From: a virus
Lineage: Duplodnaviria > Caudoviricetes
Reading direction: 5' to 3' (one strand)
Length of the DNA: 37,110 nucleotides
IMG/VR virus record: IMGVR_UViG_3300020045_006994
Coordinates: 1 to 37,110 of that record
The notes under the pieces were generated by a model. It was given only the letters and a program-made list of their open reading frames with translations, was not told where the DNA came from and did not search any database. Each line of letters starts with the position of its first letter. The stretch's first letter is position 1. Shown here in pieces: positions 2,810 through 27,001 of this stretch. Position numbers and translations under genes: made by a program.

Positions 2810-3666
2810 TCACTACTTTTTCTTATCGTCCACATTTCAGAAGCAGGTTTACGGTGCTTTTCTAAATCATAGTCTTTTAATATCTCTATGCTTTTGTAAT
2901 CTACGTTGCCTTTACGTATAGTTCTAGTGATCTTGTAACCGCTTCCTTTTGATGATTTACCATCACATAGGGTAACTACTCTATCGCGCCACATTTCCTT
3001 TTCTTGCTCGAGCAAAACAAATTGTTCCACGGTCTTTTCGTATTGAATCAAAGCATAAGCAAGATCAGCGCTTTCATTGTTAACGTAGTCTTTATCTGTC
3101 AATTCAGGCGGAGTCATACTAACAATATTGTCGAAATAGAAGTCACCACCTATCTTAATGATATCGTTAATCATATCCTGATTGCGTGACACTTCGATCG
3201 TTTCGTATTGTCCGTCATACCAAGCCATGTAAGTCATTGATGAAATACAAAGAACCGCCATCGTATGTTGCATTTGAGCTATATAATACGGCTCTATAAC
3301 TCCTAATTGCGCTTGCTTGTATGTCTTTTCGCTGCATTTGATTTCGCAGGCATATCTTCCGCACTTAGAAACTCCATCACATGATGCCATCATCCAATCA
3401 AGCTTAGGATGAATAAATACACCTGGTTCAAAATTGATCTTTGAAACCTTGTTAAGTTCAGTTCTAGCCATTGGTTCGTTTAACGTGCCGTATTCCATGC
3501 GAAAGTTAGACTTTTGCGGTTCGATAAGCTCCATTTTTTCGCTCCACAACTGAAACTTCGTCTTAAATGGATTAAGACCTAGCAGTACGCCACTATCAGT
3601 GCTAGTTATTTTCTGTCGACGTAAGGCCAGCCATTCGGCCGACCCTTGTGTAATATTAAGACTCAA
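2806..3666 (-). CDS. YqaJ/lambda-exonuclease family recombination nuclease
   Basis: QGSAEWLALRR..ITSTD, G...EP.AR, MMASCDG, EIKC, YYIAQMQH motifs; TTG start with SD GGAGG. Confidence 0.93.
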   Translation of the reverse strand: MSLNITQGSAEWLALRRQKITSTDSGVLLGLNPFKTKFQLWSEKMELIEPQKSNFRMEYGTLNEPMARTELNKVSKINFEPGVFIHPKLDWMMASCDGVSKCGRYACEIKCSEKTYKQAQLGVIEPYYIAQMQHTMAVLCISSMTYMAWYDGQYETIEVSRNQDMINDIIKIGGDFYFDNIVSMTPPELTDKDYVNNESADLAYALIQYEKTVEQFVLLEQEKEMWRDRVVTLCDGKSSKGSGYKITRTIRKGNVDYKSIEILKDYDLEKHRKPASEMWTIRKSSD

Positions 3667-3910
3667 CTTTAACCTCCGGTAATTTAGGAAAAGGCATCCA
3701 ATGCGTTATGTTTTTACAAAAATAATCCTGAACTTCATCTATAGATAATCTAAGATCTTTATTTATCTGGTTGTGTAAATAGATTTTATCCAAATACCAT
3801 TTTCTTCCGGTGTATATTGCAACACCCAAAAAATCAGAAGAACTTATAAAAACCTCAGATTGAATCTCGTCAGGCAATCTATCTTTAACAGACACCCATT
3901 CATTCATCAT
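3656..3910 (-). CDS. DUF551 family protein inserted between the recombination genes
   Basis: MNEWVSVKDRLP...ITHWMPFPKLP; SD GGAGG. Confidence 0.88.
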   Translation of the reverse strand: MMNEWVSVKDRLPDEIQSEVFISSSDFLGVAIYTGRKWYLDKIYLHNQINKDLRLSIDEVQDYFCKNITHWMPFPKLPEVKVES

Positions 3911-6781: not shown

Positions 6782-6943
6782 ATGCCTGACGACATAACAA
6801 TAAAAGTATTCGACAACCAAGAGACCTACATAACGTTCCATTTAGGTTATCGAACTTTCGGTAGGACTTTCACGGTTGAAGAACTTAAGTATTTTAACAA
6901 AATGATTGATGCAGTGTTGGATAACTTTAAGGAGATAGAATGA
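6782..6943 (+). CDS. Hypothetical protein (53 aa)
   Basis: SD GGGAG; MPDDITIKVFDNQETYITFHLG...; below the track cutoff. Confidence 0.6.
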   Translation: MPDDITIKVFDNQETYITFHLGYRTFGRTFTVEELKYFNKMIDAVLDNFKEIE

Positions 6944-6956
6944 AAAGGTATAAGGT

Positions 6957-7781
6957 ATGTTAAATGGGTTGGATCTTTTTTCAGGCATTGGAGGAATTTC
7001 CCTCGCACTCAATGAGTGGGTTAGGCCAGTCGCATATTGCGAAATCGATCCCTATTGTCAAGCGGTCATCTTATCTAAAATGGCTACAGGTGACCTGGTG
7101 CATGCCCCAATTTGGGATGATATTAAAACTTTGCGAATCAGACCCCAAGAAATTGATATTGACATCATTTATGGAGGATTCCCATGCCAGGATATCAGCG
7201 TTGCAGGAAATGGAAAAGGTTTGGCAGGAGAGCGAAGCGGGTTATTTTTCGAGATCATTCGCTTGGTCGCTGAAATCAAGCCCAGATTCATATTCCTGGA
7301 AAACGTTCCAGCAATCACAACCCGTGGGGGATTGGAAGTTGTTAGAACGATTGCCGAAATGGGGTATGATTGTAGATGGTGTGTTATATCCGCTGCGTCC
7401 GTTGGAGCGTTACATCGTCGCGAGAGATGGTTCCTATTGGCCCACTCCACAAGAAAGAGCTCAAACCGATACACCTTCGGAGAGGATGAGACACACACCT
7501 TGCTTAGAAACTCAAGTGTTATTAGCGACACCGACAGCAAGCCAAGCGAACAAACCAATAAGGAAACCGAGTCCAAGCAGGCAGAAAAAAGAACATGGGG
7601 AAGATCTACAAGACAGTATTGGCCGTTCGAATCCCGAGATGATTGGAAAAAAACTGTGTCCGAAATGGGTAAGTGTACTAATGGGATATCCGGAAACGTG
7701 GACAAACTTAGAGCGCTTGGAAATTCCGTCGTGCCTGCTCAAGTTAAAGAAGCATTTCAACTTTTAATGGGGATTAAATGA
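6957..7781 (+). CDS. dcm: C5-cytosine DNA methyltransferase, alpha chain (motifs I-VIII and X)
   Basis: LDLFSGIGG (I), GGFPCQD (IV), LENV (VI), HRRERWF (VIII), LRALGNSVVP (X). Confidence 0.93.
   Translation: MLNGLDLFSGIGGISLALNEWVRPVAYCEIDPYCQAVILSKMATGDLVHAPIWDDIKTLRIRPQEIDIDIIYGGFPCQDISVAGNGKGLAGERSGLFFEIIRLVAEIKPRFIFLENVPAITTRGGLEVVRTIAEMGYDCRWCVISAASVGALHRRERWFLLAHSTRKSSNRYTFGEDETHTLLRNSSVISDTDSKPSEQTNKETESKQAEKRTWGRSTRQYWPFESRDDWKKTVSEMGKCTNGISGNVDKLRALGNSVVPAQVKEAFQLLMGIK
6964..7767 (+). CDS. Nested +1-frame partner (beta chain: target-recognition repeats and motif IX); true start may be internal
   Basis: 267 codons open inside dcm; WPTP and LATPTASQA repeats; LCPKWVSVLMGYPETWT motif-IX-like segment. 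Confidence 0.75.
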   Translation: MGWIFFQALEEFPSHSMSGLGQSHIAKSIPIVKRSSYLKWLQVTWCMPQFGMILKLCESDPKKLILTSFMEDSHARISALQEMEKVWQESEAGYFSRSFAWSLKSSPDSYSWKTFQQSQPVGDWKLLERLPKWGMIVDGVLYPLRPLERYIVARDGSYWPTPQERAQTDTPSERMRHTPCLETQVLLATPTASQANKPIRKPSPSRQKKEHGEDLQDSIGRSNPEMIGKKLCPKWVSVLMGYPETWTNLERLEIPSCLLKLKKHFNF

Positions 7782-8062
7782 ACATCTTTAAAAATGTTTT
7801 AAATAAGTTACAGATAGGAAAAATAAATATTATAGAAAATGATCGGAAAGATAAAAAAATTGCGGAACAGTTAGAGAAAACACTTAATTGGCATGTTGTG
7901 AAGAGCAGATCTGATTCAAACCCATTCGATGGTTGCCCAATGGGTCAAATCTTATGTCGAAATATTGAAGAAGCAAAAGAATATGTTGAAAATTCAACAT
8001 TCAATGATCTTTACATAGAGGATTATTCAAAAATTAACACAAATCTTGATTTGAATATATAA
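7778..8062 (+). CDS. Hypothetical protein (AT-rich)
   Basis: 94-aa ORF starting at the end of dcm. Confidence 0.65.
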   Translation: MNIFKNVLNKLQIGKINIIENDRKDKKIAEQLEKTLNWHVVKSRSDSNPFDGCPMGQILCRNIEEAKEYVENSTFNDLYIEDYSKINTNLDLNI

Positions 8063-8272: not shown

Positions 8273-8293
8273 AGGAGAATTATTTAGAAAATC

Positions 8294-8322
8294 TTGATTT
8301 GAATCTCTGAGTCAGGTATTCT
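8294..8322 (+). promoter_or_regulatory. Promoter of the replication initiator operon
   Basis: TTGATT-17-TATTCT. Confidence 0.6.
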
Positions 8323-8334
8323 CGAGAAACGTTG

Positions 8335-8420
8335 AACGAATCCCCGGGGTAGGAAATACCCCGGGGACACCATAGGAAATAAGAGCTAGTAAACTTGACC
8401 GGTTTTAGCATCTTAGGAAA
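8335..8420 (-). ncRNA. Putative cis-antisense RNA to the initiator leader
   Basis: Minus-strand promoter TTGTCA-17-(TGa)TACAAT at 8427-8455; GC hairpin 8341-8367 as probable 3' end. Confidence 0.55.
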
Positions 8421-24463: not shown

Positions 24464-27001
24464 ATGACATTTCAACCATTTTTAATTGCTGATGCTAAAA
24501 CAGGGTTACAACTCGACAAACCCCCATTTCTTTTGGCTGATGACGCCTATACGCAATTAAATAACGTTTATCTATGGCGTAGACGCTTTAAGAAAAAGCA
24601 AGGAGTAAAGACGCTTGGTAGATTAAGAAGGGTTATTAATTATTCTTTACAATTCGGTGTAACTCAAGCAAATGGAGGATTTGGTGGATTTCTTAGGATT
24701 CAATATGGTTTAGAGTCAACTGGACAATTAGAACCTGGAACATTTTCAGCTACTGTCGGACCTGAAACATACACGGAGCCTAGCCCACCTGATGGAACGC
24801 TTGTTGGAGATATGGGAGGAGTAGGGACTTTAGATTACGCAAATATGATATTCGTTGTGAATACAATACCTCCAACACCGGGACTTATTGTAACAGTAAC
24901 AGGATTTGCTTATTTTCCTGGATTACCTGTAATGGGTTTACCTTCTAGAGAATTAGATACTATCAACGCTAATGATTCGATGGGTTTTGATACTAAATAC
25001 GCTTATTTGTACAGTAACTTACTTAATAAATATGTTGAAGCTCCAACTAGCGGCCCTCAATTCACTTGGTCAGGTTCAAACAGTAATTTCTTTTGGTCTC
25101 AAAATGCCGATAGTGCTTTATTTACCACAAATTTTACAGCTACTGAATTACCTGGCTACACAATCACAGGGATTTCTCAGGCTGTACAAGCTCAAGTAAC
25201 GATCGGTGCTCATATTCTTCAAATAGGAGATTATGTTTTCTTCAATGGCGTTTTAGGAATGACCGAGATTAATGGTCTAACTGGTCAAGTAACAGCTATT
25301 GGAGCTACAACCATCGATGTAGATATTGATAGTACAGGTTTTACGGCGTACACTTCCGACGGTGTTGTTATTTCTCAAAGTAGGGTAATCCCTGCAATAG
25401 GTGATCCTATTAGGTGGTATGATGGTTCTTTGTGGTCTAACTTTACACCACCTACAAATGCAGGAAATTACCTGATAAGCTCATTAATGATCTTCTTTTA
25501 CCGTGATCGATTATTGTTTTTAAATACAGTAGAAACGTCCGGAGCTTCTTCTACAGCAACAAATCATTATCAGCGTGCAAGATGGTCACAAAACGGAACT
25601 ATATATTATGCTACAAATCCAATCCCTGCTGGACAAAATGGAGATCCATTGGCCTATGATGACGTTACTCCTGGTCGTGGTGGATTTAATGACGCTCCCA
25701 CTTCTGAGAGAATCGTATCGGCTAGCCTTATAAAAGATCAATTGATAGTGTTTTTTGAGAGTTCCACATGGCGTTTAAGATATTCTGGAAATGAAGTATT
25801 ACCTTTCATATGGGAAAGGGTTAATTCTGAGTTTGGATCACGTAGCACATTTAGCACGATACCTTTTGATGTTGGTCCGATAACAGTTGGTTTAAGAGGT
25901 ATAGTACAGAGTGACGGCGTTAACACATTAAGAGTAGATAATATCATCCCTGATGAGGTGTTCAACTTCGAAAATGCTTCTGATGGTCCGATTAGAGTCC
26001 ATGGAATCAGGGACTTTGACGAACAGATAACATATTGGAGTTTCCCTAACGATGATGAAAATGGCACTTACCCAAATAGAGTGCTAAGTTATAACTATCG
26101 CGATCAATCATGGGCTATCTTTCTTGATAGCTTCACTTGTTTTGGAAACTGGCAATCTTTTACAGATTTTAGATGGGGAGATTGGACAACTCCATTTGGT
26201 CAATCTAATTTTACGTGGGGATCTCAAACAAATCAAAGTCTTTATCCAACTGTAATCGGTGGGAACCAGCAAGGTTATGTTTTACAACTACAAAAACAAA
26301 CGACAAACGATCCTACTTTACGAATTGATGCCATAACGGCTTCTGTTGTTGACGTAACACCTGTGATTATTACTTCAAAAGATCACAATCTAAGTTCGGA
26401 TTATGTTGTTACATTTACTGGTATTTTTGATGCGTCTGCAATTGTAATGAATGATGTAAGTTTCCAAATCGATGTGATAGATGCAGATAACTTTGCATTG
26501 TATATTTATAATCCTCAAACATTGACATTTGACATACCATATGAGTTAACACCGATTACTTATTCAGGTAATGGAGAGATCAAAGTAGTAGATAACTTTA
26601 GCATCGTATCTAAAAAGTTTAACCCTCTACTGAAACAAGACACATCTTGCCGATTAGGATGGTTAGACTTCTATGTTGATACGACATCAACAGGTAAGTT
26701 TATTGTTAATCTATACGTCGACGGTAACGATACTGAGCCGGTTAACGCTCCTGTAATTGTTGATCTCCAATTACCTGAGAATATAGAAAGCAATGTTGTT
26801 GAAACATTCTTAAATCAGTATGAAACAGCATCACAAGAAACCGTTTGGCATAGTCTTTATAATGATTGCGTTGGTAACTTTTTCCAATTTGAAATAACTC
26901 TGAGTGATTCACAAATGAATGATGCAGATATCTACGGAAGCGACTTTGTATTATATGCAATCATGTTACATGTAAACGCTGCAAATGATAGGTTAACATG
27001 A
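24464..27001 (+). CDS. Tail nozzle/DNA-stabilisation protein (tubular protein B-like) with inserted FCCH-like domains
   Basis: 845 aa, beta-rich; RARWSQ...LIVFFE.STWRL propeller-like region; position in the operon. Confidence 0.75.
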   Translation: MTFQPFLIADAKTGLQLDKPPFLLADDAYTQLNNVYLWRRRFKKKQGVKTLGRLRRVINYSLQFGVTQANGGFGGFLRIQYGLESTGQLEPGTFSATVGPETYTEPSPPDGTLVGDMGGVGTLDYANMIFVVNTIPPTPGLIVTVTGFAYFPGLPVMGLPSRELDTINANDSMGFDTKYAYLYSNLLNKYVEAPTSGPQFTWSGSNSNFFWSQNADSALFTTNFTATELPGYTITGISQAVQAQVTIGAHILQIGDYVFFNGVLGMTEINGLTGQVTAIGATTIDVDIDSTGFTAYTSDGVVISQSRVIPAIGDPIRWYDGSLWSNFTPPTNAGNYLISSLMIFFYRDRLLFLNTVETSGASSTATNHYQRARWSQNGTIYYATNPIPAGQNGDPLAYDDVTPGRGGFNDAPTSERIVSASLIKDQLIVFFESSTWRLRYSGNEVLPFIWERVNSEFGSRSTFSTIPFDVGPITVGLRGIVQSDGVNTLRVDNIIPDEVFNFENASDGPIRVHGIRDFDEQITYWSFPNDDENGTYPNRVLSYNYRDQSWAIFLDSFTCFGNWQSFTDFRWGDWTTPFGQSNFTWGSQTNQSLYPTVIGGNQQGYVLQLQKQTTNDPTLRIDAITASVVDVTPVIITSKDHNLSSDYVVTFTGIFDASAIVMNDVSFQIDVIDADNFALYIYNPQTLTFDIPYELTPITYSGNGEIKVVDNFSIVSKKFNPLLKQDTSCRLGWLDFYVDTTSTGKFIVNLYVDGNDTEPVNAPVIVDLQLPENIESNVVETFLNQYETASQETVWHSLYNDCVGNFFQFEITLSDSQMNDADIYGSDFVLYAIMLHVNAANDRLT

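Follow-up and report, generated by a model that had tools for sequence, protein, structure and literature searches.

Long same-strand dual-coding genes are rare in the literature on prokaryotes and phages. The locus described here lies in a complete virus record of 37,110 bases that carries direct terminal repeats (the whole of this stretch is called the window below), and it raises the question of whether two almost completely overlapping reading frames encode the two chains of a single DNA cytosine-C5 methyltransferase and, if so, which frame carries the recognition region. The first frame (window positions 6957 to 7781, plus strand) encodes a C5-methyltransferase of 274 aa, referred to as alpha, and the second frame (6964 to 7767, plus strand), which is +1 relative to the first and lies wholly inside it, encodes a protein of 267 aa, referred to as beta; the features located within these two genes below are likewise given on the plus strand. 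According to the original prediction, the locus encodes a two-chain enzyme whose recognition region and motif IX are encoded in the +1 frame. A precedent for such a layout is M.EcoHK31I, from E. coli HK31 (target YGGCCR), for which the accessible parts of the published accounts describe a beta polypeptide encoded inside the alpha gene in another frame, with motif IX in beta and with motifs I-VIII, motif X and the target-recognition domain (TRD) in alpha (PMC2836561, PMC3404938).

Genome context of the locus

Comparison with Pfam and PHROGs identified P22-like portal, terminase and capsid genes, a RecE/RecT-like pair, a replication initiator and a RusA-like resolvase. The methylase locus is located in a rightward run of small genes, with a Cro-like gene on one side and the initiator on the other. 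The absence of a cognate endonuclease, which had been claimed from the start, was upheld among the ORFs that were scanned (40 in PADLOC, 30 in Pfam and 29 in PHROGs, with 88 ORFs listed in the window); the neighbors of the methylase gene encode products of 55-111 aa, and a divergent nuclease could escape scans of this kind. The antisense ORF at 7169-7705 (178 aa) was without a Pfam match. A host search matched the genome to nine MAG contigs whose taxa were mixed, probably through mis-binning; no host was called, and a scan for promoters and terminators stayed at chance level. A search for the target site by word (k-mer) depletion in the phage gave no clear signal, the z values being inflated by counting on two strands.

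Three further features of the window were recorded. Inspection by eye revealed a perfect 10-bp G+C-rich inverted repeat (CCCCGGGGTA, with a 5-nt loop) at 8342-8366, in the intergenic region before the replication initiator gene, as well as a short direct repeat (AAATCTTGATTTGAAT) present at about 7982-7998, at the end of a 94-aa gene, and at 8286-8302, after a 66-aa gene, which is perhaps the scar of a gene insertion. In addition, a virion protein of 845 aa (24464-27001) contains a Pfam E1_FCCH-like domain at residues 249-303.

The alpha chain

Alpha matched PF00145 (E 9.7e-41), TIGR00675 and phrog_363 (E 5.9e-64), and a Rossmann large domain was present along with motifs I, IV (Pro-Cys), VI (ENV), VIII and X, which bears out the claim that the main frame has motifs I-VIII and X. 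The catalytic Pro-Cys of motif IV (GGFPCQDIS, 7173-7199) is uninterrupted in the window, and in motif X (KLRALGNSVVPAQ, 7704-7742) residues G255 and N256 are invariant in 119 sequences. The model of alpha alone corresponded to the large domain of M.HhaI only (E 1.7e-15, 169 columns, rmsd 2.3).

The main frame had also been described as non-canonical where the TRD and motif IX belong, and this agrees with what was found at alpha 170-222, which is unconserved and predicted to be disordered (pLDDT<50). These residues are part of a longer, weakly conserved and mostly disordered stretch (alpha 165-245, 7449-7691; identity 0.06-0.26), in which residues 168-212 are 6-14% identical among homologues and residues 223-244 are modestly conserved (W230, G243) and touch beta in the predicted complex. 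The whole of alpha 165-245 is predicted from the model to be a linker that would carry alpha across the beta-coding DNA as far as motif X. Since alpha is without motif IX and without a folded small domain, it does not have the ordinary single-chain layout, in which the TRD and motif IX accompany motifs I-VIII; it may nonetheless act in the manner of such an enzyme.

The +1 frame and its homologues

The ATG of beta is positioned 7 nt after that of alpha, and the beta ORF ends 14 nt before the end of alpha. Both ORFs were recovered as described, the +1 frame being open for 267 codons with its PTP repeats, and beta containing WPTPQ, LATPTASQA and LCPKWVSVLMGYPETWT in the expected places. When alpha was recoded with synonymous codons at the codon usage of the phage, the +1 frame acquired a mean of 15.9 stops and was open in 0 of 20,000 recodings, ruling out a chance open frame or a GC artefact; at alpha's own usage, 3 of 20,000 recodings left the frame open. 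Among 12 other genes of the window, no alternative frame stayed open for more than 89 codons.

Stops in the +1 frame of close homologues had been held to count against an overprinted gene, and they proved to be scarce. Among 41 distinct homologues with intact alpha, 39 (35/37 found with the alpha query and 4/4 found with the beta query) kept the +1 frame free of stops between motif IV and a point just short of motif X, and in 30 of the 41 it was also open over motifs I-IV. The +2 frame always had at least 4 stops in these 41 homologues. The two exceptions, L028 and L036, have stops in the beta core though alpha is intact. The count of 41 loci leaves out 2 duplicates, 12 loci in which the motif IV pattern was not matched in uninterrupted form and L046, which is without motif X, and the 38-row alignments used below leave out L022 (a near-duplicate), L024 (start not found) and both L028 and L036 (broken beta). 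Beta begins with an ATG at the corresponding place in most homologues; some clades start beta later, and beta 1-70 is missing in some homologues.

The window's beta matched phrog_1008 (E 2.3e-16), as did 137 of 140 beta homologues. PHROG 1008 (beta) and PHROG 363 (alpha) are both labelled 'DNA methyltransferase', and the labels are silent on overlap or on two chains. At E<=1e-10 the beta profile matched 13,327 cluster representatives, a number that rose to 29,756 at E<=0.001; these figures count profile matches and not overlapped loci. The beta family is large and without a Pfam model. Beta had no match among Pfam, NCBIfam or PADLOC families, its profile had none among PDB sequences, and Foldseek returned none; the best VIA Z was 3.6, for a lone helix only, and these blanks do not show a new fold. 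The further claim that standard annotation would discard beta was correct in part: the GenBank record of phage ABMM1 lists alpha only and has the +1 frame open, but on many contigs beta had been picked up by gene callers (154 matches), and PHROG 1008 itself exists.

Organization of beta

A conserved helix at beta 73-94 (7180-7245), which includes the frozen residue W87, is encoded by the same DNA as alpha motifs IV-V and is predicted to pack on alpha. Beta then has, in order, a conserved LPxWGMxVxGxLYPL block, the cassettes and the block KLCPKWVSVLMGYPETWT. In the window there are two cassettes, namely cassette 1 (WPTPQ...PCL, 7438-7521) and cassette 2 (LATPTASQ...EDLQDSIG, 7522-7626, with its start at the predicted interface), each of which is more conserved as beta than as alpha and is likely a target-recognition module. 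Cassettes open with W/L/F-P/A-T-P-x-A, and their type, order and number vary among homologues. A pattern count over 38 beta sequences found one cassette in 19, two in 9, three in 7, four in 2 and none in 1, so that tandem variable modules between motifs VIII and IX are represented by at least one cassette in 37 of the 38; alpha length changes in step with beta length. The cassettes are likely target-recognition domains, and an enzyme with two of them, like that of the window, could have two target sequences.

The block that follows (KLCPKWVSVLMGYPETWT, 7651-7704) has conserved residues M240, G241, Y242, W246 and T247, and its spacing, compared by eye, is the same as that of RKLTPRECxRxQGF in single-chain enzymes. 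Neither this block nor the cassettes, used as profiles, matched any of five single-chain methylases significantly (best E about 0.07-0.4 among the matches listed), and for that reason the motif-IX label rests on spacing and on the model.

Homologues with other layouts

A different layout was found in actinophages. Mycobacterium phage Roksolana gp91/gp90 (L153:1486-2482) is annotated as two methylase genes, and in both Roksolana and phiBT1 (L085:1790-2900) alpha ends after motif VIII and is partially overlapped by a +1-frame protein that contains the beta strand, PTP cassettes, motif IX and motif X. Beta profiles matched Roksolana gp90 (E 7e-11 among 8 sequences). The actinophage cassettes are directly before motifs IX and X, which puts them at the normal TRD position. 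The sequences make it possible that this form is an M.AquI-like evolutionary intermediate.

Some other relatives have an in-frame stop in motif IV (Pro-stop-Pro/Thr/Ser-Cys, with a 6 or 9 nt insert), which is absent from the window. Loci of this type occur among L114-L146 (the pattern loci) and also include L006, L041-L044, L047-L049, L053, L157, L159 and L161. The motif-IV pattern with any codon at this position had 33 viral matches, of which 25 had a stop (21 distinct), all 25 in a methylase-like context, and the 8 sense-codon matches were all in unrelated sequence. In the relatives with the stop, downstream alpha is usually open to motif X, beta is mostly intact, and several have an HNH-like ORF just upstream. 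The pattern is a candidate for a natural in-frame ribosome hop over a stop; the accessible text of a 2016 review knew of no natural hop of this kind (PMC5009743).

Two loci have rearranged copies. In L161 (an Acidobacteriota MAG contig, around the match at 3001-3824), alpha motifs IV-VIII are joined directly, through a change of frame, to the cassettes and motif IX of beta; this locus, which also has a motif-IV stop insert and a broken N-terminal part, is probably a decayed prophage copy. In L084 (2383-3360), a motif-X-bearing frame and a short beta-like piece flank a long unrelated insertion.

Constraint in the two frames

The per-frame conservation check that had been proposed for this locus was run on 38 aligned loci. 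Over motifs I-III the most variable codon position was alpha's third (mismatch 0.57 vs 0.34 and 0.23), whereas over cassette 1 (0.65), cassette 2 (0.58) and the motif-IX block (0.54) it was beta's third position. The wobble position switches to the +1 frame over beta 160-250, indicating that it is the +1 frame, and not the main frame, that is constrained there. Amino acid identity pointed the same way, with values for beta vs alpha of 0.54 vs 0.23 in cassette 1 (19 carriers), 0.65 vs 0.30 in cassette 2 (14 carriers) and 0.51 vs 0.35 in the motif-IX block. For mismatch and identity alike, these three blocks were aligned on beta, which brings some bias toward beta.

These values bear on an alternative in which there are two chains but recognition resides in alpha, beta provides motif IX and structure, and the cassettes serve for non-specific DNA binding or partner binding. 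The accessible accounts of M.EcoHK31I do assign its TRD to alpha (PMC2836561, PMC3404938), which conflicts with the cassette reading if both systems are true homologues, and alpha 223-244, with W230 and G243, is modestly conserved and touches beta in the model. However, alpha 168-212 is disordered and 6-14% identical, whereas cassette carriers show 54-65% identity in the beta translation of that DNA, and the cassettes of the actinophage form are at the TRD position; we regard recognition by alpha as unlikely and prefer recognition by the beta cassettes.

Constraint on beta extends upstream of the cassettes into DNA that alpha also needs. Alpha G136 is GGG in 37/37 sequences, giving beta G134; the third base of alpha L89 is G in 37/37, giving beta W87; and alpha A146 is GCT in 36/37, giving beta L144. 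Synonymous codons of alpha are frozen at these three sites, and beta G134, W87 and L144 are thereby fixed; the sequences are related, and such counts do not represent independent events. Both frames are under constraint on the DNA shared by alpha 76-164 and beta 74-162. Beta 1-70 is open in most loci and loosely constrained (four-fold-site entropy 1.60 of 2). The possibility that beta conservation is a mere shadow of alpha was ruled out by the wobble switch and the frozen synonymous sites.

The doubly constrained region also tells against a single chain made by programmed frameshifting, in which ribosomes would read alpha motifs I-VIII, shift +1 into the cassettes and motif IX, and shift back for motif X. 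There are A/T runs at 7585 and 7647, and the prophage relative L161 fuses alpha I-VIII in frame to the cassettes and motif IX, so that such a junction can occur in DNA. Two shifts would nevertheless be required, and beta 74-162, being separately constrained on the DNA of alpha motifs IV-VIII, could not share a chain with the product of that DNA. In addition, the beta ATG is at a matching place in most homologues, and the precedent enzyme M.EcoHK31I consists of two chains in the accessible part of its description (PMC2836561). The constraint that one stretch of DNA bears in both frames disfavors frameshifting, which we consider very improbable compared with two separately started chains.

Predicted complex

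A structure prediction of the two chains together, the first check suggested for this locus, was run with alpha, beta 60-267 and 3 controls. Beta alone was predicted with confidence only at about 70-90 and 160-250 (pLDDT 70-93 over 160-250). For the alpha+beta complex the score was 0.88, and the best of the 3 controls reached 0.00. The pass shows likeness and not binding, since two parts of one split enzyme may achieve it because they resemble single-chain methylases of solved structure. The score mark, reached by 116/157 solved complexes and 2/215 mismatched pairs, is roughly applicable here, as our own alignments were used. The complex runs shared at least 78% of contacts, and the pLDDT of the partner was at least 62.

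Where the chains are placed is informative all the same. In C5-methylases motif IX sits at motif X, and in the predicted complex beta 236-242, within the motif-IX-like block, was placed on alpha 251-260 (motif X). The lowest-error contacts were those of a predicted mutual pairing between beta 132-137 (KWGMIV, 7357-7374) and alpha 138-143 (DCRWCV, 7368-7385), two segments that are encoded by overlapping DNA and together span 7357-7385. Cassette 1 (beta 160-184) was predicted to be outside the confident interface. That beta instead acts on its own as an overprinted protein, or regulates or inhibits alpha, with alpha working as a stand-alone methylase of low specificity, would fit its want of a Pfam or NCBIfam match and of a significant sequence link to single-chain small domains, but is scarcely credible given that alpha is without motif IX and a small domain, that the conserved beta block is predicted on motif X, and that the actinophage beta homologue also carries motif X.

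Translation starts

Upstream of the two genes, two AAGGT boxes resembling Shine-Dalgarno sequences (6945-6949 and 6952-6956, plus strand) each lie 7 nt before one of the ATGs and presumably act in initiation. A leader ORF of 7 codons in the beta frame (6940-6963, plus strand) has an ATG that overlaps the stop of the upstream gene and a TAA that abuts the beta ATG. Among 24 starts tested, that of the leader paired most strongly with the anti-SD (-9.2 kcal/mol). The leader ORF is absent in most homologues. A tandem AAGGTAT repeat at the leader has a 7-nt period, the same as the spacing of the two starts, and the beta ATG is partly dictated by alpha's Asn-Gly codons. This arrangement of the sequence makes the leader ORF a candidate translational-coupling element and suggests that initiation of the two chains is coupled. 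Within beta, an in-frame TTG at 7339 (codon 126) with a strong Shine-Dalgarno-like box (-8.4 kcal/mol) is located just before the conserved beta core, and this TTG is a possible internal beta start.

Discussion

The locus is best read as encoding an orphan methylase of two chains, of the M.EcoHK31I type, in a complete P22-like phage. We consider it highly probable that the two chains, started next to each other, come together as a single C5-methylase. The original prediction of a two-chain enzyme whose recognition region and motif IX belong to the +1 frame finds support in the per-frame conservation, in an alpha without a folded small domain and in the predicted complex.

In the mechanism that we propose, the two overlapping frames would give two separately started chains that form one DNA cytosine-C5 methyltransferase, and the adjacent starts would likely couple translation so that similar amounts of both chains are made. 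Alpha would be the catalytic domain that binds SAM (motifs I-VIII plus motif X), its parts joined by a floppy linker in the prediction. Beta is predicted to wrap alpha by means of helix 73-94, to add a strand (residues 132-137) to the edge of the alpha sheet, and to supply motif IX against motif X. The PTPxA cassettes would be the TRDs, acquired, dropped and exchanged, as the tandem TRDs of multispecific Bacillus phage methylases are, in units of three bases that leave both frames intact. Phage orphan methylases usually serve to protect against host restriction. By analogy, this enzyme may have an anti-restriction role, methylating the phage's own DNA as a likely shield from host restriction.

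Compared by published description, as far as the accessible parts of the accounts go, the locus resembles M.EcoHK31I in that alpha has motifs I-VIII and X, beta is encoded wholly inside alpha in another frame, and two chains are predicted to be needed. A further possible likeness, motif IX in beta, is based here on spacing and model position, the profile match being not significant. The differences are that here the beta start lies 7 nt beyond that of alpha and beta spans 97% of the alpha gene; that the TRD is in alpha in M.EcoHK31I, whereas here the variable cassettes and the constraint, an indirect test, are in beta; and that the present system is phage-borne, with an endonuclease partner not found among the scanned ORFs. 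None of the matches in the homologue searches was named M.EcoHK31I. M.AquI is a two-polypeptide C5-methyltransferase whose second chain, in the accessible text, has recognition elements and motifs IX and X (PMC3404938). The present enzyme shares with it the two chains and the location of recognition elements (here by inference) and motif IX in the second one; motif X is in the small chain of M.AquI but in alpha here, where the overlap is near-total. Finally, the multispecific Bacillus phage methylases (M.SPR, M.H2I and kin) have tandem TRDs in the part of the account that is accessible (PMC8936443). They too are phage orphan C5-methyltransferases with tandem variable modules before motif IX, and by eye their modules have a similar Thr-centered start (xTLT in SPbetaL3, PTPxA here), but they are single-chain enzymes and the profile match to them is not significant.

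The basic layout is already known from M.EcoHK31I, and this precedent limits the surprise; the near-total overlap and the likely recognition cassettes in beta are what is new here. Our literature search, which covered mainly open-access papers, found no paper on the breadth of the family or on a TRD in beta. A broader interpretation, which could equally turn out right or wrong, is that this is the main architecture of an unmodelled phage methylase family of more than 13,000 clusters. Specificity would then be set by swappable +1-frame cassettes over which the annotated frame is a passenger, the strands that pair would be read from the same nucleotides, and the actinophage forms would preserve an intermediate between an M.AquI-like split and full overprinting. 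The model that places the TRD of M.EcoHK31I in alpha would need revising, and the family would amount to natural reprogrammable multispecific methylases.

M.EcoHK31I was taken up for targeted methylation, as the accessible part of one account relates (PMC2836561), and a natural two-chain, cassette-programmed methylase would, if the reading is true, be useful for that purpose. If the cassettes are recognition domains, target prediction from the annotated frame uses the wrong protein for thousands of phage methylases. Overall, the locus is essential-looking and hugely sampled, which makes it a ready system in which to measure how two frames share constraint.
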